From sequence record OQ885479: a DNA stretch of 64,000 nucleotides. One strand, 5' to 3'. The notes under the pieces are model-generated. The model did no database searches. It was not told the DNA's origin and saw only the letters and a list, made by a program, of their open reading frames with translations. Source of the stretch: Escherichia phage SUT_E1520. The number at the start of each line of letters is the position of its first letter. Within the stretch, counting starts at the first letter, position 1. Below are positions 1,856 through 43,311 of the stretch, piece by piece. A program made the position numbers and the translations under genes.

Positions 1856-2073
1856 ACTTAATTAGGGGATTACAAGTGGAATTATACATAGTTTATGTTG
1901 TATTTATTCAAGATAGAGAATACCCGGATGAATATAAAAAAGGATATAGGTTAGCCAGAGCTACCTCTGAGGCCCAAGCTATGGATAAAGTGGCAGATTA
2001 TATGATTATGGTAGAAAACGTATACTATATCGACTCCCTTGAAGCCTCAAAAGTAATTGACTAAGGAGACTAT

Positions 2074-2259
2074 ATGTCCAAGTTTCAAGAACTCAAGCAA
2101 GAGCTAGAAGAATGTGCCTGCCCTGAGTGTAGGGGAATTGGTGAAAGTTCTGATGCAGAAGCAGGAGATACTTTTTGCAATATCTGGATTTGTTCAAATT
2201 GCAACGGTACAGGTATTAATCCTAACTGCGGTGTTTCCCTAGATATTGAACGAGGATAA
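2074..2259 (+). CDS. small Cys-rich protein (zinc-ribbon-like CPEC...CSNC)
   Basis: ORF track; SD AAGGAGA upstream; two CxxC pairs. Confidence 0.5.
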   Translation: MSKFQELKQELEECACPECRGIGESSDAEAGDTFCNIWICSNCNGTGINPNCGVSLDIERG

Positions 2260-2360
2260 TACCTGTGAAACTAAAAGATTATTATATTGGTTGGTTTGTG
2301 GGACTAGTAGTAGGATTTTCACTAGGCTATAATATGTATCAACTAATAAACTGATTACAT

Positions 2361-2437
2361 GGGGGTGTAATCGAATTGGTATAGGTACTGGACTTAAAAT
2401 TCAGGTTTTGTGGGTTCGAATCCCACCACCCCTACCA
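2361..2437 (+). tRNA. tRNA with UAA anticodon (Leu type) on a short-variable-loop scaffold; atypical
   Basis: Manual fold: acceptor GGGGGTG/CACCCCT, anticodon stem CTGGA/TTCAG, loop CTTAAAA, T-arm GTGGGTTCGAATCCCAC, CCA. Confidence 0.5.
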
Positions 2438-2452
2438 ACTTAAGGAAATAAG

Positions 2453-2620
2453 ATGTATAGACATCCACCTCCGCCAACACGTCGTTCTAGAGAAGTTATC
2501 CTCATGGAATTGACGAAAAACTTCAAGGCAACTCTTGAAGATAGAGATCTAGGCACAGATGAAGACATTGATTTTATTTGTAGACTATTAAACATGAAAC
2601 TGGAGAAACAACATGGCTAA
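2453..2620 (+). CDS. hypothetical small protein (55 aa)
   Basis: ATG after SD AAGGAAATAAG directly downstream of the tRNA; stop overlaps the next gene start; below the track length cutoff. Confidence 0.35.
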   Translation: MYRHPPPPTRRSREVILMELTKNFKATLEDRDLGTDEDIDFICRLLNMKLEKQHG

Positions 2621-2819
2621 TCCCGAAATTACCGCACAACGTTTCATGCTTAAAGGCATGATTGCTGAGGCAGGTATGACTCAAGAGGTTGCAGACTTTC
2701 ATAAGCAATTTCTTGATATTATAACCCTAGCTAAAGAGACAGGAGAAAGAGAACACGGAGCAGCAATTATGGCTATATCTCTTATTAGCCTAGACTTAGC
2801 TGAAGAATCTGGAGTTTAG
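2613..2819 (+). CDS. hypothetical protein
   Basis: ORF track; SD GGAGAAACAAC upstream. Confidence 0.5.
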   Translation: MANPEITAQRFMLKGMIAEAGMTQEVADFHKQFLDIITLAKETGEREHGAAIMAISLISLDLAEESGV

Positions 2820-2849
2820 CTCCTCCAAACAGAATTTTTAAAAATGTAC

Positions 2850-2879
2850 TTGCCTTTTGCTTTAAATTTCTGGTATAAT
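2850..2879 (+). promoter_or_regulatory. T5-type early promoter (-35 TTGCCT, -10 TATAAT, A-rich upstream)
   Basis: Member of a repeated promoter family with conserved leader ATAAATTGATGAAGGAG. Confidence 0.6.
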
Positions 2880-2909
2880 AGTTATATAAATTGATGAAGG
2901 AGTTAACGA

Positions 2910-3185
2910 ATGCAAAATCGTGTTATAGCAACTGGTATTGAAAGTGCAATCTGTAAATCCTGGGAAGGCTGGGAAGGTGAGATTGAATGGCTTTATTTCT
3001 ACGATGTAGAACTTCTGCCGGAAGTTAAAGCTAAATGTATTGAAGCTGGCATGGCTCCAGATGCAAAAGCTGATATTGATATTTCAATGTCTGAACTTAA
3101 AGGTCGTGTAATTACTGTTAGTGATGAGGGCGAAGAAGTTTTCGAACTTCCATTCTCCTTAACTGTCGCTCCTAAGTTCGACTAA
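2910..3185 (+). CDS. hypothetical protein
   Basis: ORF track; promoter and SD upstream. Confidence 0.55.
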   Translation: MQNRVIATGIESAICKSWEGWEGEIEWLYFYDVELLPEVKAKCIEAGMAPDAKADIDISMSELKGRVITVSDEGEEVFELPFSLTVAPKFD

Positions 3186-3221
3186 CTAATACAGCACTGA
3201 GCAAGTTCTTTAAAATTTGAC

Positions 3222-3250
3222 TTGCTCAGTGCCATAAAACTTGATATAAT
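3222..3250 (+). promoter_or_regulatory. T5-type early promoter upstream of the tRNA block; overlaps a 12-bp inverted repeat (3192-3232)
   Basis: TTGCTC-N17-TATAAT; GCACTGAGCAAG / CTTGCTCAGTGC hairpin overlaps the -35. Confidence 0.5.
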
Positions 3251-3313
3251 AGTTATCTAATTTGGAAACATATCTAAAAGTGTTTAAACTAGTATTTGAA
3301 TACTTTTAAATAT

Positions 3314-3404
3314 GTTGGATTAGTATCGTAGAGGTAGCGAAGCAGACTGTAAATCTGCCGACTCGGAAGGGTCTCGGGTGGTTCGACTCCATCATCCAAC
3401 ACCA
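3314..3404 (+). tRNA. tRNA-Tyr (GUA), class II
   Basis: Acceptor GTTGGAT/ATCCAAC, anticodon loop CTGTAAA, long variable arm, T-loop GGTTCGACTCC, CCA. Confidence 0.7.
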
Positions 3405-3411
3405 AATTTAA

Positions 3412-3488
3412 GTCCTGTTAGACAAACTGGTAAAGTCACTACCCTTTCAAGGTAGGATTTGCGGGTTCGATCCCCGCACAGGACGCCA
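3412..3488 (+). tRNA. tRNA-Glu (UUC)
   Basis: Acceptor GTCCTGT/ACAGGAC, anticodon arm CTACC-CTTTCAA-GGTAG, T-arm GCGGGTTCGATCCCCGC, CCA. Confidence 0.75.
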
Positions 3489-3496
3489 ATTCCTGC

Positions 3497-3573
3497 ATTC
3501 CTAGAGTGTTACTGGACAGCATGTCGGTCTCCAAAACCGTACGGTCTAGGTTCGAGTCCTAGTAGGTTTGCCA
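3497..3573 (+). tRNA. tRNA-Trp (CCA); 5-prime boundary uncertain
   Basis: Anticodon loop CTCCAAA, T-arm CTAGGTTCGAGTCCTAG, CCA; acceptor pairing has two mismatches. Confidence 0.5.
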
Positions 3574-3579
3574 AAATTT

Positions 3580-3654
3580 GCACCTTTAGCTGAGATGGAT
3601 TAGCGCTTGCCTGAAGAGCTTGAGAGGTTCGTTCGATACGAACAGGGTGCACCA
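3580..3654 (+). tRNA. tRNA, probable Phe (GAA); unusual T-arm GTTCG-TTCGATA-CGAAC
   Basis: Acceptor GCACCTT/AGGGTGC, loop CTGAAGA, CCA; anticodon stem imperfect. Confidence 0.5.
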
Positions 3655-3656
3655 AA

Positions 3657-3944
3657 TTGAGGGAGCTGCTGATGCATCCTGAAAACTTCTTTATTTACTG
3701 CGCGGATAAGTTGCTGAAACGTAGAATTAACAAAGTCTATCATTATCGTGCTAGTCAACAGCCTTATGTATACGCTTTTGACGGTGATCACATTCCATTA
3801 GAACAATTATCCTGTGATTACATGATATTGAAGAACTTTGACGAGACAAAGATCTCAAGCGTTCATAATCGACAGAATCCCTTAACGTGGAAATATAAGA
3901 AGAAAAAGAAAGGCATCAAATTTTTAAAAAATGTAGTTGCTTAG
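3657..3944 (+). CDS. hypothetical protein (TTG start per track; first ATG at 3672)
   Basis: ORF track; starts immediately after the tRNA. Confidence 0.4.
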   Translation: MRELLMHPENFFIYCADKLLKRRINKVYHYRASQQPYVYAFDGDHIPLEQLSCDYMILKNFDETKISSVHNRQNPLTWKYKKKKKGIKFLKNVVA

Positions 3945-3965
3945 TTTCCAAAAGTTCTGTATAAT
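3937..3965 (+). promoter_or_regulatory. T5-type early promoter
   Basis: TTGCTT-N17-TATAAT followed by the conserved ATAAATTGAACTGGAGAAG leader. Confidence 0.6.
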
Positions 3966-4012
3966 AATTACATAAATTGAACTGGAGAAGCAACATGACA
4001 GAACAAGATAAA

Positions 4013-4088
4013 TCGACCGTTGGCTGAATGGCTTAGGCGAAGGATTGCAAATCCTTTTTATGTGAGTTCAAATCTCATGCGGTCGTCC
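4013..4088 (+). tRNA. tRNA-Cys (GCA)
   Basis: Acceptor CGACCGT/GCGGTCG, anticodon arm AAGGA-TTGCAAA-TCCTT, T-loop GTTCAAATC, CCA. Confidence 0.7.
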
Positions 4089-4230
4089 AATTTGCTGAAA
4101 GAGTTGTTAAATCAATTCAGGCACGCGTAGGAACACTGTCTCCGTAATTGAAAGATGAGGCACGGTTTGGAGAGGTATGCCGCTACACGCTACGGTGCTA
4201 ACTCCGTCTAGGTGAAAATCCTAGTCAGCA
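4089..4230 (+). ncRNA. structured non-coding segment (about 140 nt); T-arm-like hairpin with a non-canonical TGAAAAT loop
   Basis: No ORF; closing helix TTGCTGA / TCAGCAA; CTAGG-TGAAAAT-CCTAG hairpin; does not fold as a standard tRNA. Confidence 0.3.
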
Positions 4231-4241
4231 ATATAAATTTA

Positions 4242-4324
4242 GGGTCGTTAGCCAAGCGGTTTGGCGGTGGACTGTTAATCCATGTCGAAAGACAACGTAG
4301 GTTCGAATCCTACACGGCCCGCCA
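4242..4324 (+). tRNA. tRNA, anticodon GUU (Asn type) with an unusually long 13-nt variable region
   Basis: Acceptor GGGTCGT/ACGGCCC, loop CTGTTAA, T-arm GTAGGTTCGAATCCTAC, CCA. Confidence 0.55.
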
Positions 4325-4426
4325 AATTCTGTGTAGAGTTAAGTAAACCGGTAGCCAACCAGCTATCATTGCTGACATCGAATTCAGTCACAGATACCAT
4401 TTTCATTAATAACTGAGGAAACAAGC

Positions 4427-4612
4427 ATGTCCAAGAATGTAATTGCACAGCTAGAAGTTCATCGTGATAGCACTATCAACAATATTGAAGTTGAGAAGAA
4501 ATACATCGAAGAACTTAAACATGATATACTAGTAAGTCTCAACCGTCTTAATGTACGAAAAAAGTTTCTTAAAGAACTTAATGCAGCTATTGAAAAACTC
4601 AAAGCTGAGTAA
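4427..4612 (+). CDS. hypothetical protein (coiled-coil-like)
   Basis: ORF track; SD GAGGAAACAAGC. Confidence 0.5.
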   Translation: MSKNVIAQLEVHRDSTINNIEVEKKYIEELKHDILVSLNRLNVRKKFLKELNAAIEKLKAE

Positions 4613-4621
4613 ATGAATTAT

Positions 4622-4699
4622 GCGACCGGGGCTGGCTTGGTAATGGTACTCCCCTGTCACGGGAGGGAATGTGGGTTCAAATCCCATCGGTCGCGCCAA
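4622..4699 (+). tRNA. tRNA-Asp (GUC)
   Basis: Acceptor GCGACCG/CGGTCGC, anticodon arm CTCCC-CTGTCAC-GGGAG, T-loop GGTTCAAATCC, CCA. Confidence 0.75.
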
Positions 4700-4724
4700 A
4701 TTAAACTAGTACGAGAAATATGCT

Positions 4725-5072
4725 ATGATTAATGCTAAAGAAGAATTGTTACTTGCCTTAAAGAATATTAATTCTGAAGTTAAGTGTATTAAGATAGAAT
4801 TCGGTTATTATGGGGACAAAGAAGTTTGGGTGTTACCCGTAGGTTATACAGAAAAAGATATTGAAGATTTTCTAAATAATCTAGACTTTAAATATGATTC
4901 TGGTTTCGGTGGGCAATTGCTTTATGGTAACGTGTGGTTTACTGATGGAACTTGGTTAGAACGTGGTGAATACGACGGTTCTGAATGGTGGGAATATAAG
5001 GCTACACCAGCAATCCCAGAAGAATGCCGAACAATTAAGGGTGAAGTAGATAATACTTTACGGTTAAACTAA
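4725..5072 (+). CDS. hypothetical protein
   Basis: ORF track. Confidence 0.55.
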   Translation: MINAKEELLLALKNINSEVKCIKIEFGYYGDKEVWVLPVGYTEKDIEDFLNNLDFKYDSGFGGQLLYGNVWFTDGTWLERGEYDGSEWWEYKATPAIPEECRTIKGEVDNTLRLN

Positions 5073-5079
5073 TAAAATT

Positions 5080-5182
5080 TCAGTGCAGAACACGGAGCTA
5101 GCAATTCGGAAGTGCTGACTCATGATAAGCTGCCTATGTACTTGCGAAGCGGTCGTGTCCAAGACTCGGACTCTTGCACTGA
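5080..5182 (+). ncRNA. structured non-coding element 1 of 3 in tandem (about 100 nt, long closing helix)
   Basis: No ORF; CAGTGCAGA pairs with TCTTGCACTG across about 90 nt. Confidence 0.3.
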
Positions 5183-5203
5183 AAACAATCAAACATTCTA
5201 GCG

Positions 5204-5316
5204 TGGTTGATGGGGAAACCAGCTTGGCGAGGGCAGAAGCTCGTTCGATTCGAGTGAAAGAATGGTTCTCGTAAGTCCGCACAAGTGATAACAGGTTCGA
5301 GTCCTGTCTAGAATGA
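5204..5316 (+). ncRNA. tRNA-like structured element 2 of 3 (about 112 nt): 8-bp acceptor-like helix, D-arm-like and canonical T-arm, no standard anticodon arm
   Basis: CATTCTAG / CTAGAATG closing helix; TGGTT-GATGGGGAA-ACCA; ACAGG-TTCGAGT-CCTGT. Confidence 0.35.
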
Positions 5317-5327
5317 CACTATAAAGT

Positions 5328-5438
5328 TTACTTATTATGTAGGTTCCGATAGATCGGCGGGTCTATTCTGGCACTTAAGAGAGGTCTCGCAAACTTCTTT
5401 GTCAGCCGTGGGGTTGGTAGCCTCCAGGTGGCCTACAC
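5328..5438 (+). ncRNA. structured non-coding element 3 of 3 (about 110 nt)
   Basis: TACTTATTATGTAGG pairs with CCTACACAATAAGTA; no ORF. Confidence 0.3.
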
Positions 5439-5464
5439 AATAAGTAAATTTATTAAAAATTCAT

Positions 5465-5493
5465 TTGCTATTATGCTTAATTCTCTGTATAAT
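5465..5493 (+). promoter_or_regulatory. T5-type early promoter
   Basis: TTGCTA-N17-TATAAT; leader ATAAAGTGTTGAGAAGG. Confidence 0.6.
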
Positions 5494-5525
5494 ATACCTT
5501 ATAAAGTGTTGAGAAGGAAAGCAAA

Positions 5526-5723
5526 ATGAAAAAAGTTTTACTGCTGTCTGTATTCCTACTTACTGGTTGTTTTAAACTTGACTCAACCATTAATAAAGAG
5601 TATGAATTTGCTAAAAATTTCTGTGGCGGAGAGAGTAATATAAAGAATTTCTACATATATAGTACAATTCCTAGTACCGTTTATTGTGTAGACGGACGAA
5701 TTATTAATATTCCTCCACAATAA
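5526..5723 (+). CDS. putative lipoprotein (signal peptide with lipobox LTGC)
   Basis: ORF track; N-terminus MKKVLLLSVFLLTGC. Confidence 0.5.
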   Translation: MKKVLLLSVFLLTGCFKLDSTINKEYEFAKNFCGGESNIKNFYIYSTIPSTVYCVDGRIINIPPQ

Positions 5724-5732
5724 AAGAATTAA

Positions 5733-5808
5733 CAGTGCGTAGCGCAGTTGGTAGCGTGGGAGCCTTGGATGCTTCGGGTCGCAGGTTCGAGTCCTGCCGC
5801 ACTGACCA
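5733..5808 (+). tRNA. tRNA-Pro (UGG)
   Basis: Acceptor CAGTGCG/CGCACTG, D-arm GCGCAGTTGGTAGCGT, loop CTTGGAT, T-arm GCAGGTTCGAGTCCTGC, CCA. Confidence 0.7.
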
Positions 5809-5815
5809 AACAATT

Positions 5816-5892
5816 GCGGGTTAGATCTCTGGTAGAGATCGCTAGTCTCATAAGCTAGAAAGAGGTAGGTTCGATTCCTGCACCCGCTTCCA
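5816..5892 (+). tRNA. tRNA with CAU anticodon (Met or Ile2 type)
   Basis: Anticodon arm CTAGT-CTCATAA-GCTAG, T-loop GGTTCGATTCC, CCA; first acceptor pair imperfect. Confidence 0.55.
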
Positions 5893-5912
5893 TTTTAATA
5901 GAGGATTTCGAA

Positions 5913-6080
5913 ATGAAAGTATTTCGATTAGTAGTAAGTGACAAACGGTTAGGTAAGAATACATCAAAATCCTTACTCGCTCATTATGGTAAAAATTGGG
6001 ATGAAGTAATGGTAGAGTTTAGTACTAATCACCCTTACTTAAAAGTCCACTCTATTAAGGAAGTGTATAATGGTTACTAA
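5913..6080 (+). CDS. hypothetical small protein (55 aa)
   Basis: ATG after SD AGAGGA; below the track cutoff. Confidence 0.35.
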   Translation: MKVFRLVVSDKRLGKNTSKSLLAHYGKNWDEVMVEFSTNHPYLKVHSIKEVYNGY

Positions 6081-6081
6081 T

Positions 6082-6160
6082 AGATCGCTAGCTCAATAGG
6101 TTTAGTAGCATCCGACTTTTAATCGGAAGGTTCTGGGTTCGAGTCCCAGGCGATCTACCA
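6082..6160 (+). tRNA. tRNA-Lys (UUU)
   Basis: Acceptor AGATCGC/GCGATCT, anticodon arm TCCGA-CTTTTAA-TCGGA, T-arm CTGGGTTCGAGTCCCAG, CCA. Confidence 0.7.
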
Positions 6161-6178
6161 ATTTCAAGAAAAACGCAG

Positions 6179-6207
6179 TTGCTTAATGCTTAATTTCTTG
6201 TTATAAT
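6179..6207 (+). promoter_or_regulatory. T5-type early promoter driving a non-coding leader and downstream tRNAs
   Basis: TTGCTT-N17-TATAAT; leader ATAAATTGATGAGGAG but no ORF follows. Confidence 0.6.
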
Positions 6208-6214
6208 ATTTATA

Positions 6215-6445
6215 TAAATTGATGAGGAGAAATCCTCATCATAGTTCACTAAGGTATTAGCTCGACCTAGGACTGGCTGCCAAAAAGCACGATCCCTACG
6301 ATTCGGGAGAAGTTCTAGATTAGTCCACTAGGTTCAGCGGCAACTGAATAGTGTATCGGGTTTGCGAGATGACGCGGTTCCTTCCGCTTGAAGCGAAGGT
6401 GCTGTAGTTACGCCGAGCTAATAGCCTTAGTAAACTAAAGAATTT
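6215..6445 (+). ncRNA. promoter-proximal structured non-coding RNA candidate (about 230 nt) upstream of tRNA-Ala
   Basis: No ORF or tRNA fold; 9-bp long-range helix ATTAGCTCG (6256-6264) with CGAGCTAAT (6414-6422). Confidence 0.35.
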
Positions 6446-6524
6446 GGGGAATGGGTCTGCATGGAGTGGACACCTCGCTTGCACCGAGGACATCAGAACG
6501 GTTCGATTCCGTTATTCTCCACCA
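6446..6524 (+). tRNA. tRNA-Ala (UGC)
   Basis: Acceptor GGGGAAT/ATTCTCC, anticodon arm CCTCG-CTTGCAC-CGAGG, T-arm AACGGTTCGATTCCGTT, CCA. Confidence 0.65.
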
Positions 6525-6529
6525 AACAT

Positions 6530-6606
6530 GCGTGATTGATGGAATTGGCATACATACCGTCCTTAGAAGTCGGGTTTTGAGGGTTCGAATCCCTTGTCAC
6601 GCACCA
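6530..6606 (+). tRNA. tRNA with UAG anticodon (Leu type) on a short-variable-loop scaffold; atypical
   Basis: Acceptor GCGTGAT/GTCACGC, loop CTTAGAA, variable GTTTT, T-arm GAGGGTTCGAATCCCTT, CCA. Confidence 0.5.
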
Positions 6607-6718
6607 AATTTGATGGTCAGAGTAAATTAAACCTACTATCTCGGTTGAGCTGTTTTAATGGGTTCGAATCCCAGCGAGGCGTAACTGCCTGGTGTGATAG
6701 AGGCATCATCTTATTATT
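6607..6718 (+). ncRNA. non-coding segment with an orphan T-arm (GGGTTCGAATCCCAG) and no recognisable acceptor stem
   Basis: Canonical T-loop near 6658-6672 but no complementary 5-prime/3-prime acceptor halves found by hand. Confidence 0.25.
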
Positions 6719-6809
6719 GGAAGAGCAAATCGAATTGGCGACGAAAACCGCTTGGAAAGTGGCTGACTGGTAAAACGGCTTGAGAGTTCAAATCTCTCCT
6801 CTTCCGCCA
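6719..6809 (+). tRNA. tRNA-Ser (GGA), class II
   Basis: Acceptor GGAAGAG/CTCTTCC, loop TTGGAAA, long variable arm, T-arm GAGAGTTCAAATCTCTC, CCA. Confidence 0.6.
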
Positions 6810-6821
6810 AACAATTTATAT

Positions 6822-6916
6822 GGTAGGTCAATCCAATGGCTGGCGCTGGACTCCGACTTGAAATCGGTTGATCGTAGTGATACGGTGTAAGGGTTCGATC
6901 CCCTTACCTACCTCCA
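6822..6916 (+). tRNA. tRNA-Ser (UGA), class II with a very long variable arm (95 nt total)
   Basis: Acceptor GGTAGGT/ACCTACC, anticodon arm CCGA-CTTGAAA-TCGG, T-arm AAGGGTTCGATCCCCTT, CCA. Confidence 0.6.
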
Positions 6917-7062
6917 AATCCTGAAGTATGCCGGAATCGGTAGACGGGGCTGCCTAAAAGGTTTATAGGGAACATCCACTCCCTGCAACATACCTCATAA
7001 AGCGGCTGAGATAAATGGTCTATCTCGTGAAGGTTCAAGTCCTTCTGCTTCTTGATACACCA
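6917..7062 (+). ncRNA. non-coding structured segment containing a T-arm-like hairpin (GAAGG-TTCAAGT-CCTTC); not resolved as a tRNA
   Basis: No ORF; several local hairpins, including GAGATA-AATGGTC-TATCTC. Confidence 0.25.
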
Positions 7063-7757: not shown

Positions 7758-7833
7758 GCGGTTAAGCACACGGGTTGTGCCGCAGGCCTTCCAAGCCTCG
7801 CTGAGTAGGGTTCGATTCCCTCTAGCCGCTCCA
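7758..7833 (+). tRNA. tRNA-Gly (UCC)
   Basis: Acceptor GCGGTTA/TAGCCGC, loop CTTCCAA, T-loop GGTTCGATTCC, CCA. Confidence 0.6.
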
Positions 7834-8266: not shown

Positions 8267-8353
8267 GCTGGGTTGGCAGAATGGTTGAATGCACCTGATT
8301 TGTAATCAGGAGGAGTAATCCCGTTACAGGTTCGAATCCTGTGCCCAGCACCA
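8267..8353 (+). tRNA. tRNA with long variable region; anticodon read as UGU (Thr type) but identity uncertain
   Basis: Acceptor GCTGGGT/GCCCAGC, anticodon arm CCTGA-TTTGTAA-TCAGG, T-arm ACAGGTTCGAATCCTGT, CCA. Confidence 0.5.
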
Positions 8354-14238: not shown

Positions 14239-14522
14239 AACCAGAGCCATCTCATGAGTTAAAGCAAGCTCATGTAGACTGGCCTAAAGGACTTCAACCT
14301 TGTAGCTTTGACTTTAAGTTTGAAAAGAAATTAGCTACAAATGGAGAAGATGGCGTAGTAGTTGTTATACCATACAAAGATTGGAATGCAAAAGCAAAAT
14401 GTGAGGAAGCAGTTTACTCTTACATTTCACGACTGACTGGTATGGTCTGCTTCTATCGTCAAGATTTACAAGAAAAACGTTGCTTAGTTTACTATCCACC
14501 AATTAACAATAGGAAAGATTAA
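14169..14522 (+). CDS. putative lipoprotein (lipobox ITGC)
   Basis: ORF track; signal-peptide-like N-terminus. Confidence 0.5.
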   Translation: MFNWKLGVLLAATITITGCAEEIKPEPSHELKQAHVDWPKGLQPCSFDFKFEKKLATNGEDGVVVVIPYKDWNAKAKCEEAVYSYISRLTGMVCFYRQDLQEKRCLVYYPPINNRKD

Positions 14523-15274
14523 TGTCAGTATTAGTCGGTTTACATGGTGAAGCTGGTTCGGGAAAAGATACCGTTGCAAAATTAATTATCGATTGGTGTA
14601 ATGACACGTATCCAACGTGTTTATCTCGTCGTTATAGTTTTGCTAAGCCCGTTTATGAACTTGCATCCGTAATCCTCGGTGTAACTCCAGAGTTTCTAGG
14701 AGAGCGCAGGGGAAAAGAGATTGACCAATGGTTTACGGTCACACAATCTCAGTTGGAACGAGCCAGGGATGTGTGGTTTAAGTACGGTATCGATAAGTTT
14801 GAAGACTTCTCGTACGTTTGGCCTATTTTTGAGGAAAAATATCTTAATCCTCAACAACTTATATCAGAGAATAAAGAAGACGGTCTTTATAGCTTATTTA
14901 TTTCTCCGAGAAAAATGTTACAGCTCGTAGGGACAGAGCTAGGAAGGCAGCTGGTGCATGAACGCATTTGGCTCATAATTCTGGAGCAATCCATCGCTAA
15001 AGACGACCCAGATGTCGCCGTAATAACAGATGTTAGATTCCCCAATGAAGGAGAGTTACTCAGAGAAACAAACCATTTAGATATGGATTCTTTGATAGTA
15101 AATGTAGTACCCGCTGAGCAGAAGTTCACTATTAAATCAGATCATCCATCTGAAAGTGGTATTCCTGCAAAATATATTACTCACGAATTAGTTAATAAAT
15201 TCGATGGTATCAATAACCTTAAACTAGAAGTTTATAACTTCTGTGACTTAGAGCTAGAACCACTAGTTGGATAA
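14522..15274 (+). CDS. dnk: P-loop nucleotide kinase, probable deoxynucleoside monophosphate kinase
   Basis: Walker A GEAGSGKDT at the N-terminus; 250 aa, matching my recollection of T5 dNMP kinase. Confidence 0.6.
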   Translation: MSVLVGLHGEAGSGKDTVAKLIIDWCNDTYPTCLSRRYSFAKPVYELASVILGVTPEFLGERRGKEIDQWFTVTQSQLERARDVWFKYGIDKFEDFSYVWPIFEEKYLNPQQLISENKEDGLYSLFISPRKMLQLVGTELGRQLVHERIWLIILEQSIAKDDPDVAVITDVRFPNEGELLRETNHLDMDSLIVNVVPAEQKFTIKSDHPSESGIPAKYITHELVNKFDGINNLKLEVYNFCDLELEPLVG

Positions 15275-15286
15275 TCAAGGATCACT

Positions 15287-15886
15287 ATGACTAATAAAAA
15301 AGAAGAAAAGACTAACCTGTTTCACTCCATTCGCCAATCTAATGAGTATACCTTTTTCTTTGATGAAGAATTAGGCCCGCCGGATGAATACCGTGATTTA
15401 TCAATGGTACTTATGCAAGCAAATGAGGACGACGAAATTAATCTGATGATTAATGGCCCTGGTGGTTATGTTGATACTGCTGCACAGTTATCTAACTTAA
15501 TTGCTAATTGCCGTGGAACAGTTATAGGACATCTGGTTGGTCCTAGTGCTTCTGCTTACTGCACAATTTTCCTATCCTGTCATGGGTGGGTAGTACATCC
15601 ACATGCTACGCTAATGGGACACACGTTCTCTGGAGGATTCTGTGAGAAGGGTCAAGAAATCAAGAAAGCCTATGAATCTTACAACAAGTTCGTAGAAGAT
15701 ATGATGCTAGATGTCTACTATCCGTTTTTCTCAATAGACGAAATCGATGAGATGGTAAAAGACAACAAAAATATCTATCTAGATAGCAAAGAAATCCATA
15801 AGCGTATTGAAATCTTGGCAAAATATCGATCTGAGCAGTATAATAAAGCCCAGTTACCTCAATCAGAGGAGCATAAAGAAGAGTAA
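15287..15886 (+). CDS. ClpP-like serine peptidase
   Basis: INGPGGYVDTA and GPSASAY motifs resemble the ClpP INSPGG / GQAASMG segments. Confidence 0.5.
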   Translation: MTNKKEEKTNLFHSIRQSNEYTFFFDEELGPPDEYRDLSMVLMQANEDDEINLMINGPGGYVDTAAQLSNLIANCRGTVIGHLVGPSASAYCTIFLSCHGWVVHPHATLMGHTFSGGFCEKGQEIKKAYESYNKFVEDMMLDVYYPFFSIDEIDEMVKDNKNIYLDSKEIHKRIEILAKYRSEQYNKAQLPQSEEHKEE

Positions 15887-15895
15887 GTAGTTTTA

Positions 15896-15930
15896 AGCCA
15901 GGGTTTAACAACCCTGGCTTTTCTTTTATC
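15896..15930 (+). terminator. rho-independent terminator
   Basis: AAGCCAGGGTT...AACCCTGGCTT hairpin followed by a T-run. Confidence 0.65.
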
Positions 15931-15989
15931 TAAAATTCTTCTTGACAACGACAAAATTTTGTGCTCCAAAGAAAATCTTTAAAAACACA

Positions 15990-16018
15990 TTGTAATTTTC
16001 CTCCAAAATTAGTATAAT
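15990..16018 (+). promoter_or_regulatory. sigma70-type promoter upstream of the lysis genes
   Basis: TTGTAA-N17-TATAAT, followed by SD GAGGAGG. Confidence 0.5.
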
Positions 16019-16042
16019 GGTACTGGTTAGAGGAGGTTACAA

Positions 16043-16699
16043 TTGGAAAAGTTCTTACAATTATTAACGGTACTGCTCCAAGAAGCGAAAGATCCAGCAT
16101 CACTTCTTAAACGTCTGCTAACTATCTTAGTTGCTATCATTATTTTCTTATTTGTTAGTAATACTAGCGAGGTGATGTCATTCTTAAAGACTTTCTCCAC
16201 GTCTGCGGTTCTACAGGATGTTCAAACTCAAAGGATAGATAACTTTCCTAATGTAGCTAGAGAAAAGAGCATGGTACTCTTTTCTCAAACGGGTGCGGAT
16301 GCTGTTTTTGTAGTCAAGTATAAACCCGATGCCATTAATGATTATTCTAACATTATTGCATGGGAAAGCAATGCGCAATTAGATAGGGCTGACTTGGCCG
16401 ATAAAGCAGTAAATAAAACGTCTGAGCTATACAGACGTCACTTAGAGGGCTTTAACTACGCATCGGATTTAAGTGTAAGAGTAAATAAATATACGGGGTT
16501 AAATATACCTGCGTTTAAGAACGTTACTTTTAATTACATATACACTTGTCCATATTTCAATCTAAACAATATCTATGCTGGATATATTGGTATTGCTTGG
16601 AAAGATAATCCTGTAGATGCAGCCGATTCTGAGAAATTTAAGGAATATTTAACAAAGCTCTGTTCCCCACAACAGAGATCTTTAGGTAGATCAATATGA
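16043..16699 (+). CDS. putative holin (membrane N-terminus), immediately upstream of the endolysin
   Basis: ORF track (TTG start); TM segment; position; 218 aa as I recall for T5 holin. Confidence 0.55.
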   Translation: MEKFLQLLTVLLQEAKDPASLLKRLLTILVAIIIFLFVSNTSEVMSFLKTFSTSAVLQDVQTQRIDNFPNVAREKSMVLFSQTGADAVFVVKYKPDAINDYSNIIAWESNAQLDRADLADKAVNKTSELYRRHLEGFNYASDLSVRVNKYTGLNIPAFKNVTFNYIYTCPYFNLNNIYAGYIGIAWKDNPVDAADSEKFKEYLTKLCSPQQRSLGRSI

Positions 16700-17109
16700 G
16701 TTTTAAATTTGGTAAAAATAGCGAAAAACAATTAGCTACCGTTAAGCCAGAGCTACAAAAAGTAGCTCGTAGAGCTTTAGAATTATCTCCATATGATTTC
16801 ACGATCGTACAGGGTATTCGTACAGTAGCACAAAGTGCCCAGAATATTGCTAATGGTACTTCATTTTTAAAAGATCCTAGTAAAAGCAAGCATATTACTG
16901 GGGATGCCCTTGATTTTGCTCCATACATTAATGGCAAAATTGATTGGAATGATTTAGAAGCATTTTGGGCAGTTAAAAAGGCTTTTGAACAAGCGGGTAA
17001 AGAACTAGGCATTAAACTTCGTTTTGGTGCTGATTGGAATGCTTCGGGAGATTATCACGACGAAATAAAACGTGGTACCTATGATGGCGGTCATGTCGAA
17101 CTAGTTTAA
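16696..17109 (+). CDS. endolysin, L-alanyl-D-glutamate peptidase (M15-type zinc peptidase)
   Basis: 137 aa; HITGDALDF and GGHVEL zinc-ligand motifs. Confidence 0.8.
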   Translation: MSFKFGKNSEKQLATVKPELQKVARRALELSPYDFTIVQGIRTVAQSAQNIANGTSFLKDPSKSKHITGDALDFAPYINGKIDWNDLEAFWAVKKAFEQAGKELGIKLRFGADWNASGDYHDEIKRGTYDGGHVELV

Positions 17110-17120
17110 TTAATAACTGA

Positions 17121-17144
17121 GGCGGGAATATTCCCGCCTTTTTA
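17121..17144 (+). terminator. rho-independent terminator
   Basis: GGCGGGAATATTCCCGCC hairpin followed by TTTTT. Confidence 0.65.
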
Positions 17145-17186
17145 GGCAAAGGGGGCTTTAATAATTTTTGAAGATAGGAGAAAGCC

Positions 17187-17603
17187 ATGTTTGCAGAACT
17201 ATTCACTATGATGCTGCTAGGTATCTGGAAAATAAGTCTAGTAGTATTCGTTTTAATGATAGTCTTTACTATCATTGCATTAACTACCCGAAATAGCTTA
17301 TTAATAAAGGTTATTCACGGACTAGAGTATATAATTATGGGTTCATTCGGCGTTTGTAAATGCAATTGCCATAGAGATACGAAATATTGTTGGTTATGGA
17401 TGGAACTAGAGAATCCTATATCCATAGCTTTGGCTGTTTCATTCGGTATGATTCTTATGGCCCTTACTCTAGCATTAATACCTTTGATGTTAGCTGGGGG
17501 AGTTACAGCGTATTTCACCCTTTTCTCCCCGATACTTATGTACTCAATTTACCCAATAACTATGTATCTAGTTAGGAAAAAATTTATACATGCAGTAGAT
17601 TAA
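17187..17603 (+). CDS. multi-pass membrane protein (hypothetical)
   Basis: ORF track; several hydrophobic segments. Confidence 0.55.
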   Translation: MFAELFTMMLLGIWKISLVVFVLMIVFTIIALTTRNSLLIKVIHGLEYIIMGSFGVCKCNCHRDTKYCWLWMELENPISIALAVSFGMILMALTLALIPLMLAGGVTAYFTLFSPILMYSIYPITMYLVRKKFIHAVD

Positions 17604-17616
17604 GATAAAAAAGTAG

Positions 17617-17645
17617 TTGACTTTTAGCCCTAGTTATTATATAAT
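17617..17645 (+). promoter_or_regulatory. T5-type early promoter
   Basis: TTGACT-N17-TATAAT; leader ACATAAATTAGTTAAGAGAGG. Confidence 0.6.
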
Positions 17646-17678
17646 ATATACATAAATTAGTTAAGAGAGGTATATATT

Positions 17679-18110
17679 ATGTCTGATCGTTTCTATACTC
17701 AAATGGCGGAACATTTTCGTATACCACATTACGAGCTAAACATTGCACTCCGTGATCATGACTCTCCTGAGTACAAAAAGCTCGAAAAGAAAGCGGAAAA
17801 ATCTATTGATACAAAGGTAGGTGCATCTATGTCTAAGGGCAAAAAGTTAACTCGTCTTGATCTTAATAAAATTTTAACTGAACTTTTGGGTACTGATATT
17901 GAAGGTGCTAAATTACCGCTTCTTGTACTAGAGACTATGATTAAAAAGGTCAAAAATAAAGAATATAAGAAGGTAGAAGTCCCGGAAGGCAGATTAAAAG
18001 CTCCTTATCAGGAAGCATTAACCGAGTGTTTGGGTGTAAATCTTGATCTGAGCACCGCAACCGTAAAAACTATGAAAAACTTCTTAGAGGCCATTAATAA
18101 CTATGAGTAA
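17679..18110 (+). CDS. hypothetical protein
   Basis: ORF track. Confidence 0.55.
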   Translation: MSDRFYTQMAEHFRIPHYELNIALRDHDSPEYKKLEKKAEKSIDTKVGASMSKGKKLTRLDLNKILTELLGTDIEGAKLPLLVLETMIKKVKNKEYKKVEVPEGRLKAPYQEALTECLGVNLDLSTATVKTMKNFLEAINNYE

Positions 18111-18393
18111 ATTAGTATACCTATTAAAAGGTTCCACTTGCAATCCTTGCAAAATGTTTGAGCCAGTATTTGATAAAGTAGTCAATGACTATAATTTGGA
18201 AATCCATAAAGAGACTGATAATACAGAATTAATGCAGAAATTTGGTGTGCGCCAAGTTCCTGTAGTAGTTCTGGCAGATCGCTTACCTAATGGTCGAGTA
18301 GAAGCTAACCATATTTTGATTGGACGTCAGCTTCGTAAAGAAACTATGCACGAAGCTATTAAAAATTTCCTGGATGATAATCCAGAGGACTAA
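18103..18393 (+). CDS. thioredoxin/glutaredoxin-like protein (CNPC motif)
   Basis: CxxC near the N-terminus in a fold-sized protein. Confidence 0.5.
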   Translation: MSKLVYLLKGSTCNPCKMFEPVFDKVVNDYNLEIHKETDNTELMQKFGVRQVPVVVLADRLPNGRVEANHILIGRQLRKETMHEAIKNFLDDNPED

Positions 18394-18398
18394 TAAAC

Positions 18399-18432
18399 AA
18401 AGCCTGATCTTAGCAGATCAGGCTTTTATTTT
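18399..18432 (+). terminator. rho-independent terminator
   Basis: AGCCTGATCT...AGATCAGGCT hairpin followed by TTTTATTTT. Confidence 0.65.
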
Positions 18433-18434
18433 AC

Positions 18435-18463
18435 TTGCTTTTTGCTAAAAATTTTGGTATAAT
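18435..18463 (+). promoter_or_regulatory. T5-type early promoter
   Basis: TTGCTT-N17-TATAAT; leader ATATAAATTGATAAGAGAG. Confidence 0.55.
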
Positions 18464-18574
18464 ACTTATATAAATTGATAAGAGAGCCATTAATATGCTT
18501 ACGCCACCTATCTTTGCAGGGATTTTAGCCATATTAATGGACATCTTTGCCACTCAAGAAATAGGAGTATTACG

Positions 18575-18823
18575 ATGAACTATGCATATCTAATTATTAA
18601 TAACAATGTAGTTTGTGGTACTCGCGCCGTTGAGATGGGTATTACAGAAGAAAAGTATAAGTCACTTCCAGAAAAGGAACAACAATATTATGTTGAAGAA
18701 GCTGCTTGGGAATATGCTGATGTTTATCCCGAACAGCGTGAAGATCGCGTTACTATTGTTGTCTCTTTGGGGCTGGTTGGCTGTGATACCGAAGTTGATA
18801 CAGACCTAGAGACTTTAGAATAG
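18575..18823 (+). CDS. hypothetical acidic protein
   Basis: ORF track; SD AGGAGT. Confidence 0.5.
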   Translation: MNYAYLIINNNVVCGTRAVEMGITEEKYKSLPEKEQQYYVEEAAWEYADVYPEQREDRVTIVVSLGLVGCDTEVDTDLETLE

Positions 18824-18956
18824 TGGGGAGAATTAGACATTTCAGCTAAAAACTCTTTAATCCGTGAGGCTTTTTGGGAAGCAGTTGACTGCCATGTTGT
18901 CTTTGAGCCTAACGATGAGGAAGCTGAGAAGCATACTAACCACTGGAGATAATTAA

Positions 18957-19202
18957 ATGTTAGCGGAACAAGCAAAACGTTTAGCTAGGATAAATAGAGC
19001 TGCAATTCTTAAGAGCAGAAAGAAACCATATAAGTATGTTAAAAAGAGAATAGTTTCTTCTGTGGAGATTGGAGGTTCTTTTGTACAGTTTAATCGTGAT
19101 GAAATTAGTTATGAAGCTATAAAAGCCCTCTATAAAGAGGGTTATACTCTCCAACTATCTAATGAGTATGGCACAACTATTTTAACTGTTATTTGGGAAT
19201 AA
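18957..19202 (+). CDS. hypothetical protein
   Basis: ORF track. Confidence 0.5.
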   Translation: MLAEQAKRLARINRAAILKSRKKPYKYVKKRIVSSVEIGGSFVQFNRDEISYEAIKALYKEGYTLQLSNEYGTTILTVIWE

Positions 19203-19204
19203 TT

Positions 19205-20068
19205 ATGAAAAAAGAATTTAATGTACATAAAACTCTAGTAGTGCCAGATGATGCCAACTTGTTTTTCGTTGGTGATATTCATGGATGCAATGATTTGCTG
19301 GAAGATGCGTTGAAATTAGCTGGGTATAATAGCAAGAAAGATTGCTTAGTATGTGTTGGTGACTTAATTGACCGAGGCACACAAAACCTACAAGTTTTAG
19401 CCAAATTCCTGTATAATCCACATTTTATCAGTGTCCGTGGTAATCACGACCAATTTATGATTGCAGGAGATTGGGCTAATTGGATGTATAACGGTGGTAT
19501 ATGGGCTATGGAAGAGCTGGATGCAGACACCATTAAAAATATCGCCGAAGATATGGCTGAAAAAATGCCAGTATTCCTAACTGTTAGGCATCGTGGTAAG
19601 AAGTATGGTGTTGTTCATGGTGGTGTACCTTTTACGTACAAAGAATGTGGTAATGAAGTAGAAACCCCAGTATGGGATAATCTTATTGCACAAGTAGAAG
19701 CAGCTAAGGAAGACCCACATGACCATCCTGGATACCATATTGAACCATATTTATGGGATCGAGATGTAATCCAAGAAATAGGCTTCTACTTGTCCAAAAA
19801 TGGTGAGGAACACCCGTATTTCCAGCGTTATTCAGGATTTAAAGAAAAATATATGGTAGAAGTGCCAGAAGTTAAAGGGGTAGATTTCGTGTTTCATGGG
19901 CATACTGGAGTACCTTACCCACTTCTTTATAAAAACCGTGTTTACCTTGATACTGGCGGTGTTTTCAACGGGCAGTTGACGGTTGCGCAAGTTAATGATG
20001 AAACGGGCAAAATCACCACATTTACTACACTCCGGGAAGATAGCTGTGGTGTACAGAGGATTCTTTAA
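19205..20068 (+). CDS. Ser/Thr protein phosphatase (PPP-family metallophosphoesterase)
   Basis: GDIHGC, GDLIDRG and GNHD motifs; track ORF 19193..20068 with start moved to the second in-frame ATG. Confidence 0.75.
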   Translation: MKKEFNVHKTLVVPDDANLFFVGDIHGCNDLLEDALKLAGYNSKKDCLVCVGDLIDRGTQNLQVLAKFLYNPHFISVRGNHDQFMIAGDWANWMYNGGIWAMEELDADTIKNIAEDMAEKMPVFLTVRHRGKKYGVVHGGVPFTYKECGNEVETPVWDNLIAQVEAAKEDPHDHPGYHIEPYLWDRDVIQEIGFYLSKNGEEHPYFQRYSGFKEKYMVEVPEVKGVDFVFHGHTGVPYPLLYKNRVYLDTGGVFNGQLTVAQVNDETGKITTFTTLREDSCGVQRIL

Positions 20069-41398: not shown

Positions 41399-41881
41399 AT
41401 GGCAAATGATGTATTAGTACCAGATCTTATGTCCCCTGAAGGGATGGATGTAATTGAAGCGTATTTACAGTGCGGCAGCGATGTGCCTTCTGCCGCACGT
41501 AGTCTTGGGATGTCCGAAATTGCTTTCCGAGATATTATGAATCGTAGTGAAGTTAAGAATTACTTAAACGATATTTTTATGGAGAGTGGATTCCGTAACA
41601 GAGATCGTTTATTTGGTGTTCTAGATGAGGTTATCAAGCGTAAACTAGAGGAACTGGAAGAAACTGGCATGGGTTCTGACCAAGATATTATGGATATTCT
41701 CTGGAAAGCACATAAAATGAAAATGGAAGAAATGAAAATGATGGTAGAATTGGAGAAAGTGAAGGCAGCAGCCCGTACTCCAGCTAACCAGACCAACATC
41801 CAGAATAATATTATTGCTGGAGCTGGGGATCAAAACTACATGGACTTAATTACTTCCCTAGCTACTGGAGGTAAGAAGTAA
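41399..41881 (+). CDS. putative terminase small subunit
   Basis: 160 aa directly upstream of the large terminase with stop/start overlap; helix-turn-helix-like N-terminus. Confidence 0.5.
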
Positions 41882-43197: not shown

Positions 43198-43311
43198 ATA
43201 AGTATAGGAAGGGATACTACTCAGTTGGTATCCCATTCCTGCATTTTAAAATCCCCTTTACAAATTCGATACGATTATGTATACTATATTCATACAGTTG
43301 AGGAGAACACT

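Follow-up and report, generated by a model that had tools for sequence, protein, structure and literature searches.

Two type I tRNA-Leu genes with short variable loops in the tRNA cluster of a T5-like coliphage

The two genes and their fold

The analyzed window, a stretch of 64,000 nucleotides, shows 100% identity to the T5-like Tequintavirus Escherichia phage SUT_E420; its source is a T5-like coliphage with a near-complete tRNA set. A relaxed ARAGORN run recovers 25 tRNAs in the window, none of which is a class II tRNA-Leu or carries a Leu anticodon beyond the two described here. The cluster also holds several structures that merely resemble tRNAs. The two leucine genes and their parts are as follows.

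2361..2437, + strand: tRNA-Leu(UAA), type I (short variable loop), 77 nt including the encoded CCA; ARAGORN; Rfam RF00005, 59.9 bits, E 3.5e-11; tRNA-Leu(taa) in public T5-like records
2373..2383, + strand: D loop of the UAA gene, GAAUUGGUAUA, 11 nt; structure-aligned comparison with leuZ, leuW, leuQPV, leuX, and leuU
2395..2397, + strand: anticodon UAA in the loop CUUAAAA; bracket structure; A36-A37-A38 motif kept
2405..2409, + strand: variable loop GUUUU of the UAA gene, 5 nt; last base U48, the Levitt-pair partner of A15
2434..2434, + strand: discriminator A73 of the UAA gene, followed by the encoded CCA (2435-2437)
6530..6606, + strand: tRNA-Leu(UAG), type I, 77 nt including the encoded CCA; ARAGORN; Rfam RF00005, 47.5 bits, E 9.4e-8; tRNA-Leu(tag) in most records
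6542-6552, + strand: D loop of the UAG gene, GAAUUGGCAUA, part of tRNA-Leu(UAG)
6564..6566, + strand: anticodon UAG in the loop CUUAGAA; A37, versus G37 of E. coli leuW
6574..6578, + strand: variable loop GUUUU of the UAG gene, 5 nt; U48 at 6578
6603..6603, + strand: discriminator A73 of the UAG gene, followed by the encoded CCA (6604-6606)

The initial annotation had described two tRNAs with anticodon loops CTTAAAA and CTTAGAA and a 5-nt variable region, GTTTT, a description that ARAGORN, Rfam, and the bracket structures all bear out. Both genes lie above the RF00005 gathering score of 29, and both form a complete cloverleaf, with a 7-bp acceptor stem that includes G3-C70, a D arm, a 5-bp anticodon stem with a 7-nt loop, and a T arm with a loop of the GTTCRANYC type (UUCGAAU in each). 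In the UAA gene, 2370-2372 pair with 2384-2386 to form a 3-bp stem below the D loop, whose A14, A15, G18, G19, and A20a stand in register with those of E. coli tRNA-Leu (GAAUUGGUAGA). The anticodon stem of the UAG gene (6557-6561 with 6569-6573) contains a U30.U40 mismatch, which recurs in the Seunavirus homologue of this gene. Several features count against the UAG gene: its lower score (47.5 bits), this U.U mismatch, A37 in place of G37, and a label of tRNA-OTHER in one GenBank record.

Alternative folds with a different anticodon triplet, or with a long arm that had been overlooked, were sought for both genes, and none appears for either. The variable region is 5 nt in both, short of the stem-loop of at least 10 nt that characterizes class II tRNAs; both genes combine a Leu anticodon, a variable loop of 4-5 nt, and a retained nucleotide 48, the features by which type I tRNA-Leu is recognized (PMC6614811). 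A suppressor role was considered and rejected, since 5'-UAA-3' and 5'-UAG-3' read UUA/UUG and CUA/CUN, and stop codons would require the anticodons UUA, CUA, or UCA.

Both genes are already known, through tRNA-Leu annotation in public T5-like genomes, and are ordinary members of the T5 tRNA cluster. At a query coverage of at least 80%, the UAA gene is found in 336 phage records and the UAG gene in 363, annotated as tRNA-Leu; both are 95-100% conserved across most T5-like records. A review table likewise includes tRNA-Leu in its list of T5 tRNAs, citing Scherberg and Weiss and Hunt et al.

Leucine identity in a short-arm body

The identity set of E. coli tRNA-Leu comprises A73, A15-U48, G18G19, A20a, and the tertiary pairs that join the D loop to the T loop; the anticodon and the long arm are dispensable, and truncated variants without the arm are still active (Giege and Eriani 2023, PMC9976931). 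This set is intact in both phage genes. A73 is present at 2434 and 6603, and both tRNAs carry U8, A14, A15, and U48, which would pair as U8:A14 and A15:U48, as judged from the sequence. The 11-nt D loop of each sits on a 3-bp D stem and contains G18G19 and A20a, and the T loop has U54, U55, C56, and A58. In their D arm (a 3-bp stem with GAAUUGGYAUA), U8, U48, and A73, they match all five tRNA-Leu species of E. coli K-12. As a composite signature, this Leu body is present in 90% of type II and 12 of 12 type I Leu tRNAs from bacteria; the viral figures are 76% for type II and 59% for type I, and no other isotype exceeds 1%.

Isotype assignment was addressed with profile HMMs built for this study as a proxy for the tRNAscan-SE models; the anticodon was masked, the variable region was removed, and the Leu model was trained on type II tRNAs only. 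These profiles place Leu first for both genes, in agreement with the anticodons (39.8 bits versus 33.6 for Lys in the UAA gene; 33.6 versus 23.2 for Gly in the UAG gene), and the same profiles classify 14 of 19 other T5 tRNAs correctly.

The fold is also maintained well beyond T5. In an alignment of 62 distinct 74-nt homologues and analogues, all type I Leu tRNAs, 98.6% of cells are paired and compensatory changes occur at all 20 pairs; the observed covariation and pairing values were reached by none of 500 shuffles, which places the short-arm cloverleaf far outside chance expectation. U8, A14, G18, U33, A35, C56, A58, and A73 are invariant across this family (A73 in 62 of 62), and U8, A14, A15, and U48 are each invariant or at least 90% conserved.

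The codon usage of this AT-rich phage matches the two anticodons. Across 31 of its ORFs, UUA (27.9%) and CUA (25.1%) are the two commonest Leu codons, together making up 53%. Both rank among the minor Leu codons of E. coli. In the portal gene, UUA and CUA positions correspond in homologues to L in 49%, I and V in 13% each, and F in 6%, and other Leu codons behave similarly (L 54%); this comparison, of 28 homologues of 50-55% identity, is small, at 14 codon positions, and, the homologues being conceptually translated sequences of other Demerecviridae, only weakly independent. In T5 capsid structures, the solved chains match the standard-code sequence.

Type I leucine tRNAs in other systems

The closest bacterial reference is the type I tRNA-Leu(CAA) of Streptomyces coelicolor, which likewise has a 5-nt variable loop and shares a cytoplasm and a single LeuRS with tRNA-Leu of type II; there, a 5-nt loop including nucleotide 48 is the minimum for good charging (PMC6614811). 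The Streptomyces tRNA is chromosomal, with the anticodon CAA and the loop ACAGC (C48), whereas the T5 tRNAs are phage-borne, with GUUUU (U48). Further, the S. coelicolor LeuRS does not use A73, and the E. coli LeuRS, the enzyme on which the T5 tRNAs have to rely, fails on the S. coelicolor tRNA. This example, along with several Actinobacteria found here, limits the premise of the initial annotation that bacterial tRNA-Leu is class II: the premise is correct for E. coli but not universally (PMC6614811).

Animal mitochondrial tRNA-Leu(UUR) and tRNA-Leu(CUN) are also type I with UAA and UAG anticodons, and are charged without an arm, with identity residing mainly in A73 and A14 (PMC9976931). These tRNAs, however, are organellar and floppy and are served by a dedicated mitochondrial LeuRS, whereas the T5 tRNAs retain a canonical D/T-loop core (G18G19, U54 U55 C56) and would rely on the cytoplasmic bacterial LeuRS of the host. 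The host's own leuZ (UAA; D loop GAAUCGGUAGA) and leuW (UAG; D loop AAAUUGGUAGA) have the anticodons, 3-bp D stem, 11-nt D loop, U8, U48, and A73 of the T5 tRNAs, but differ in their length (85-87 nt), their variable arm of 13-15 nt, the T loop UUCAAGU, U32, and, in leuW, G37; in body sequence they match the T5 tRNAs at an identity of only 0.50-0.59.

Engineered E. coli tRNA-Leu constructs without the arm, as summarized in a review, are leucylated by E. coli LeuRS if A73 and the D/T-loop interactions are intact (Asahara 1998, Tocchini-Valentini 2000, Larkin 2002; PMC9976931). The T5 genes resemble natural counterparts of these constructs, some of which, in the same summary, also lacked the anticodon arm. 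A separation of arm class from anticodon is known from the nematode nev-tRNAs, which belong to class II, bear Gly or Ile anticodons, and are charged with Leu, showing that LeuRS reads the body and not the anticodon (PMC3333845). They are the opposite of the T5 case: a long arm and a non-Leu anticodon lead to recoding in the nematode, whereas the T5 tRNAs have matching anticodon and body and lack only the arm.

Similar tRNAs occur in other phages. Type I tRNA-Leu of Felixounavirus, Seunavirus, Demerecviridae of Vibrio and Aeromonas, and the Pseudomonas N4-like phage ZC08 are 74-78 nt long and annotated as tRNA-Leu; they share an 11-nt D loop on a 3-bp D stem, a variable loop of 5 nt with U as its last base, and A73. 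For some, identity to the T5 genes is 76-88%; a CAA anticodon also occurs, and in ZC08 the type I tRNA lies beside an 84-nt tRNA-Leu. In the samples compiled here, 41 of 125 tRNA-Leu(UAR) in viral contigs are armless versus 10 of 110 in bacterial genomes (Fisher p = 1e-5); for UAA only, the counts are 23 of 98 and 9 of 104 (p = 0.006). Armless Leu tRNAs are common in phages, in these samples at about a quarter to a third of tRNA-Leu(UAR) versus about 9% in bacteria, where the type I tRNA-Leu in our sample are mostly from Actinobacteria. We found no description of this phage enrichment in the literature that could be searched.

Charging, arm loss, and alternative roles

We consider it very likely that both genes encode functional, leucine-accepting type I tRNAs in which a 5-nt loop replaces the usual variable arm of 13-15 nt, and which E. 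coli LeuRS would leucylate. The host enzyme would recognize them through A73, U8:A14, and the A15:U48 Levitt pair, and would also read where G18G19 and A20a lie within the 11-nt D loop with its 3-bp D stem, plus the D/T-loop tertiary pairs. Once charged, one tRNA would decode UUA (and UUG), and the other CUA and, by wobble, further CUN codons. TrmL, which requires the A36-A37-A38 motif and i6A37, is indifferent to the variable arm (PMC4615657). Such charging is not to be taken for granted, because E. coli LeuRS failed to charge a natural type I tRNA-Leu, the CAA species of S. coelicolor, and has been described as charging type II tRNA-Leu only (Fan et al. 2019, PMC6614811).

The initial annotation had offered two options, an unusual class I Leu tRNA or a tRNA whose identity is not set by its anticodon. 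Identity elements, composite signature, masked profiles, and cognate codons support the former, and the Leu body together with the Leu-like portal substitutions at UUA and CUA weighs against the latter. Charging with a different amino acid, with UUA or CUA thereby partly recoded in the phage, is in our view very improbable. There are precedents in class I tRNAs with UAG anticodons, namely those for Thr in yeast mitochondria and for Ala in Ashbya (PMC7609411), and the failure of E. coli LeuRS on one natural type I tRNA-Leu could be read the same way (PMC6614811). But the anticodon loops in T5 are of 7 nt and not 8 nt as in yeast, the Thr bases G35 and U36 are lacking, and G3-C70 in both genes leaves them without the G3:U70 of the Ala case; the reassigned class I tRNA(UAG) type was thus rejected, both its 8-nt loop and its G3:U70 being absent (criteria of PMC7609411). 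The body, moreover, has every element of the Leu signature, and its best profile score is for Leu; recoding would affect codons that make up over half of Leu usage and align with L, I, V, and F in homologues, and the solved capsid chains match the standard-code sequence. It is more improbable still that the genes have no use in translation, and are instead pseudogenes, decoys that soak up nucleases, or processing or regulatory elements of cluster transcripts. The single tRNA-OTHER label of the UAG gene and the non-tRNA structures within the cluster would suit such a role; complete cloverleaves with encoded CCA, high conservation in most T5-like records, compensatory changes at 20 of 20 pairs, invariant key bases across the wider family, and anticodons that fit the dominant Leu codons of the phage all argue against it.

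A further question is why the arm is missing from leucine tRNAs that otherwise appear complete. The arm loss would be tolerated, probably only because LeuRS ignores the arm. [quoted passage not shown] In our viral sample, the long arm is kept in 88 of 89 tRNA-Ser and 34 of 38 tRNA-Tyr. Bacterial TyrRS also contacts the variable arm. The loss in tRNA-Leu would then represent tolerated streamlining and not an adaptation.

It is also conceivable, though we regard it as unlikely, that armless tRNA-Leu is a widespread, phage-enriched design because some factor in the infected cell reads the long arm or type II shape. That factor might be a nuclease or modifying toxin of the host or a rival phage; alternatively, the phage itself might disable host tRNA-Leu while sparing its own, and T5-like phages would keep decoding leucine with their armless tRNAs. 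The over-representation of type I tRNA-Leu in viral contigs is consistent with this, as is its occurrence in tRNA-rich loci (a median of 15.5 tRNAs per locus in the T5-like subfamily). The Lys, Thr, Asn, and Tyr tRNAs of T5 are documented to act against tRNA-cleaving defences (PMC12409363, PMC12445682, PMC11555353), and human SLFN11 provides a precedent for an immune nuclease that prefers type II tRNAs (PMC13462974). Phage tRNAs of normally short-arm isotypes also gain long arms, which suggests unusual pressure on the variable region. However, no bacterial defence nuclease specific for tRNA-Leu, type II, or long-arm tRNAs was found in the literature searched. The bacterial Schlafens characterized so far cut either the T loop generally or particular tRNAs, those for Lys, Met, and Ala among them, and PARIS and OLD act on the anticodon stems of Lys, Thr, and Asn. 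The idea in the initial annotation that such tRNAs might evade host defences aimed at the anticodon likewise found no support, and the anticodon loops of both T5 tRNA-Leu are ordinary. A general arm-reading threat is not evident, because phage tRNA-Ser and tRNA-Tyr retain their arms, and relaxed constraint or genome economy explains the phage enrichment equally well. If the adaptive reading were true, wild-type E. coli LeuRS would efficiently charge natural type I tRNA-Leu, contrary to the LeuRS literature of 2019.

If LeuRS charges the T5 tRNAs, T5-infected E. coli would offer a simple, tractable setting in which one synthetase serves tRNA-Leu of both types, and compact Leu tRNAs of this kind, if they work in E. 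coli as their inferred charging implies, may be useful scaffolds for tRNA engineering.

Structure and setting of the two tRNA-Leu genes

The two tRNA-Leu genes of Escherichia phage SUT_E1520 very probably encode working leucine tRNAs, predicted to be charged by the host leucyl-tRNA synthetase (LeuRS) via arm-independent determinants and to meet the phage's need for UUA and CUA decoding. Both share a 5-nt variable loop (GUUUU), the discriminator A73 and an encoded CCA.

tRNA-Leu(UAA), 2361-2437, + strand: 77 nt; loop CUUAAAA; anticodon UAA at 2395-2397
tRNA-Leu(UAG), 6530-6606, + strand: 77 nt; loop CUUAGAA; anticodon UAG at 6564-6566

The coordinates, the loops CTTAAAA and CTTAGAA and the 5-nt GTTTT reported in the initial annotation proved exact by ARAGORN, Rfam and bracket structures, and the Rfam RF00005 scores were 59.9 bits for the UAA gene and 47.5 bits for the UAG gene (gathering score 29). 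That annotation had allowed that automated folding might place another anticodon or reveal an overlooked long arm; neither was found in either gene by ARAGORN (default and relaxed), Rfam or ViennaRNA. Relaxed ARAGORN detected no further Leu-anticodon tRNA and no class II (long-armed) tRNA-Leu within the window, the additional class II genes being Ser(GGA) and Ser(UGA). A suppressor function was ruled out because the anticodons UAA and UAG decode Leu codons, pairing with UUA/UUG and CUA/CUN rather than with stops. The anticodon stem-loop of the UAG gene (6557-6573) contains a U30.U40 mismatch and has A37 where E. coli leuW, the UAG isoacceptor, has G37, the m1G37 (TrmD) site; a Seunavirus homologue has an anticodon stem and loop identical in sequence.

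The genes lie in the T5 tRNA-rich region, which occupies the first 9.5 kb on the + strand with small ORFs interspersed among the tRNA genes. Over 2000-7000 the sequence matches Escherichia phage SUT_E420 at 100% identity, and many further genomes of the T5-like Tequintavirus (Demerecviridae) at 95-99.8%. Default ARAGORN counts 20 tRNAs in the window and overlooks four genes that are recovered by Rfam or relaxed ARAGORN and annotated in the T5_ev212 record:

tRNA-Met(CAU), 1778-1855
tRNA-Ser(GGA), 6719-6809, class II
tRNA-Ser(UGA), 6822-6916, class II
tRNA-Gly(UCC), 7758-7833

Following the tRNA region, a deoxynucleotide monophosphate kinase and a metallophosphoesterase lead directly into late genes for terminase, portal, capsid and tail tube (14522-20068 and 41881-61863); given this order, record OQ885479 must be a permutation of the standard T5 map.

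Other tRNAs in the cluster also depart from their expected class. The tRNA-Thr(UGU) at 8267-8353 (87 nt) has a 15-nt variable arm, a 3-bp D stem, the D loop GAAUGGUUGAA and A73, and these features make its scaffold class-II-like; anticodon-masked profiles rank Ser best (38.5 bits), with Thr outside the top three. This long-armed tRNA reverses the situation of the armless Leu tRNAs. In published work, the tRNA-Thr(UGU) of T5 nevertheless helps to relieve PARIS toxicity, and phage-encoded tRNA-Thr(UGU) rescues P2-OLD-induced cell death (PMC12409363, PMC12445682). The 83-nt tRNA-Asn(GUU) at 4242-4324 has a variable arm of 12-13 nt (GUCGAAAGACAAC), and a Seunavirus phage likewise carries an 83-nt Asn tRNA. 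Long arms in normally armless isotypes occurred in our viral sample (Ile 12/74, Asn 5/52, Gln 4/58) and in none of the bacterial sample. Five segments of apparently non-coding inter-tRNA DNA (4092-4232, 5080-5182, 5196-5313, 5330-5445 and 6607-6718) adopt tRNA-like multi-branched folds, each with a closing stem and a T-arm-like hairpin adjoining the 3' strand (e.g., GCUCGUUCGAUUCGAGU, ACAGGUUCGAGUCCUGU, GGGUUCGAAUCCC). None has an Rfam match; the folding z of 5330-5445 is -3.47, and relaxed ARAGORN reads 5196-5263 as a 68-nt 'Arg(GCG)'.

Leucine identity and codon usage

The bodies of both tRNAs carry features of E. coli leucine tRNAs. When the five E. coli K-12 tRNA-Leu species were aligned with them by structure, all five showed a 3-bp D stem, an 11-nt D loop (GAAUUGGUAGA or a near variant), U8, U48 and A73. 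The phage D arms are of the same type (GAAUUGGUAUA and GAAUUGGCAUA), and U8, A73 and U48, the final base of GUUUU, are present in both. In E. coli, the anticodon and long arm are dispensable for leucine identity and armless variants remain active (PMC9976931); all identity elements listed in that review are found in both phage tRNAs. A composite Leu signature (U8; 3-bp D stem with a 10-12-nt loop; N-A-R...GG-N-A; U48; A73) was scored for specificity on approximately 1,800 tRNAs parsed with ARAGORN.

Table. Frequency of the composite Leu signature
Bacterial type II (long-armed) tRNA-Leu: 90%
Bacterial type I (short 4-5-nt variable loop) tRNA-Leu: 12/12
Viral type II tRNA-Leu: 76%
Viral type I tRNA-Leu: 59%
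Any other isotype: at most 1%

Isotype DNA profile HMMs, standing in for the tRNAscan-SE isotype models, were built with the anticodon masked, the variable region removed and T5-like loci left out of training, the Leu model deriving from type II tRNAs only. Leu was the best profile for both the UAA gene (39.8 vs 33.6 bits for the next) and the UAG gene (33.6 vs 23.2 bits); the profiles were right for 14 of the 19 remaining T5 tRNAs.

Codon usage points the same way. Across 31 ORFs of at least 150 aa (10,575 codons), UUA and CUA make up 27.9% and 25.1% of Leu codons, and these are precisely the codons cognate to the phage anticodons. In E. coli, roughly 4% of Leu codons are CUA and roughly 13% are UUA. 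The portal, terminase and tail genes draw heavily on UUA and CUA. In the major capsid gene (46099-47475), by contrast, CUG fills 41 of 49 Leu positions, CUA four and UUA none. This most highly expressed late gene thus appears to be matched to the tRNA-Leu(CAG) of the host and not to the phage's own tRNAs.

Conservation and distribution of armless tRNA-Leu

At least 80% of the query was covered in 336 phage records for the UAA gene and 363 for the UAG gene, mostly at 95-100% identity; both are annotated there as tRNA-Leu, apart from one record giving the UAG gene as tRNA-OTHER. Of 5,426 complete genomes of E. coli, none contained a match to the UAA gene. Annotated phages and IMG/VR contigs supplied 62 distinct type I Leu tRNAs, each 74 nt long and alignable without gaps. 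In their alignment a short-arm cloverleaf accounted for 98.6% pairing, and 20 of 20 pairs had changes on both sides; none of 500 shuffles and no slid register approached this value. U8, A14, G18, U33, A35, C56, A58 and A73 are invariant, and A15, G19, A20a and U48 at least 90% conserved.

Annotated tRNA-Leu genes of 74-78 nt, whether homologues or analogues, are known in several phage groups:

Felixounavirus (phage Shy has three: UAG, CAA and UAA)
Seunavirus
Vibrio and Aeromonas Demerecviridae
N4-like Pseudomonas phage

IMG/VR and GTDB species genomes were surveyed with the pattern CTTARAA-N(12-27)-GGTTCRANTCC; the first 120 matches listed for each database were parsed with ARAGORN, and variable-loop length was read from its bracket structures. 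Among the matches listed, viral contigs gave 41 type I and 84 type II (UAA only, 23/98 type I) and bacterial genomes 10 and 100 (UAA only, 9/104), a viral excess of type I (Fisher p = 1e-5; UAA only, p = 0.006) in which the fractions, dependent on the loop/T-loop pattern and scan order, are estimates rather than a census. Eight of the ten bacterial type I cases among the matches listed are Actinobacteria sharing one conserved sequence. This chromosomal tRNA-Leu(UAA) (GCCCCCGUAGCCCAAUCGGCAGAGG..., variable loop NCAGU, CCA not encoded; loci L221, L223, L225, L240, L253, L306, L311 and L313) comes from Nocardioides, Gordonia, Arcanobacterium, Herbiconiux, Nonomuraea, Nocardia and one uncultured Actinomycetes MAG. 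An "actinophage" label for one group of viral type I tRNAs (C13-type) was withdrawn because the median GC of their loci is 0.40.

Explanations for the missing arm

The initial annotation had offered two readings, unusual class I Leu tRNAs or tRNAs whose identity is not set by the anticodon. Intact LeuRS identity elements, the Leu signature, masked profiles ranking Leu first and the abundance of the cognate codons bear out the former; the signature and profiles, with Leu-like substitutions at UUA/CUA, disfavor the latter. In the portal gene, the residues that 28 homologues (50-55% identity) place opposite its 14 UUA/CUA codons are 49% L, 13% I, 13% V and 6% F, against 54% L opposite the other Leu codons; this small and weakly independent test gives no hint of a different amino acid. 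Solved T5 capsid structures have chains that agree with the standard-code sequence, and known UAG-reassignment signatures (an 8-nt loop, G3:U70) are absent from both tRNAs. Mischarging or recoding of UUA or CUA is therefore highly improbable given the full Leu identity elements, the profiles, the portal substitutions and the missing reassignment signatures, and a non-translational role is scarcely credible beside the conservation, covariation and match to the dominant Leu codons.

It is also conceivable, but unlikely, that arm loss was adaptive, letting the tRNAs evade a nuclease or toxin that reads the long arm. Such evasion would be compatible with the phage enrichment of type I tRNA-Leu and with the way T5 is documented to use Lys, Thr, Asn and Tyr tRNAs against PARIS, OLD and Retron-Eco7 (PMC12409363, PMC12445682, PMC11555353). 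However, none of the bacterial effectors in the literature searched singles out type II tRNAs or tRNA-Leu: PARIS, OLD, Retron-Eco7, bacterial Schlafens and Cash all have other targets, and the sole precedent is human SLFN11 (PMC13462974). Retron-Kva2 HEPN was considered and rejected as nonspecific, its tRNA-Leu fragments ending at U33 appearing among many other products.

We favor translation by leucine tRNAs, and infer that both are leucylated. Host LeuRS would charge them through determinants independent of the long arm, and the charged tRNAs would supply UUA and CUA decoding for an AT-rich phage. Because LeuRS ignores the arm, it could be free to disappear; tRNA-Ser and tRNA-Tyr retain theirs in 88/89 and 34/38 cases in the viral sample.

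According to Fan et al. (2019; PMC6614811), nearly all bacterial tRNA-Leu is type II; they describe E. coli LeuRS as type II-only and report that it did not charge the Streptomyces type I tRNA. The assertion in the initial annotation that bacterial tRNA-Leu is class II holds for E. coli and is not universal: type I forms are well known from the mitochondria of animals and, as tRNA-Leu(CAA), from Streptomyces coelicolor (PMC6614811), and the Actinobacterial tRNA-Leu(UAA) widens the Streptomyces case to a second anticodon and more genera. Phages are not mentioned by Fan et al. (2019; PMC6614811), nor are armless phage tRNA-Leu in a 2020 review of non-canonical tRNAs (PMC7609411) or in the full-text literature searched (T5 tRNA-Leu, type I/class I, variable arm). 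The T5 genes are already annotated and fall within type I tRNA-Leu, a kind known before; tRNA-Leu has been listed among T5-encoded tRNAs since the 1970s. The presence of this kind in a coliphage and its frequency in phages went unremarked in the literature searched. Type I tRNA-Leu is unusual for E. coli, but not among phages.
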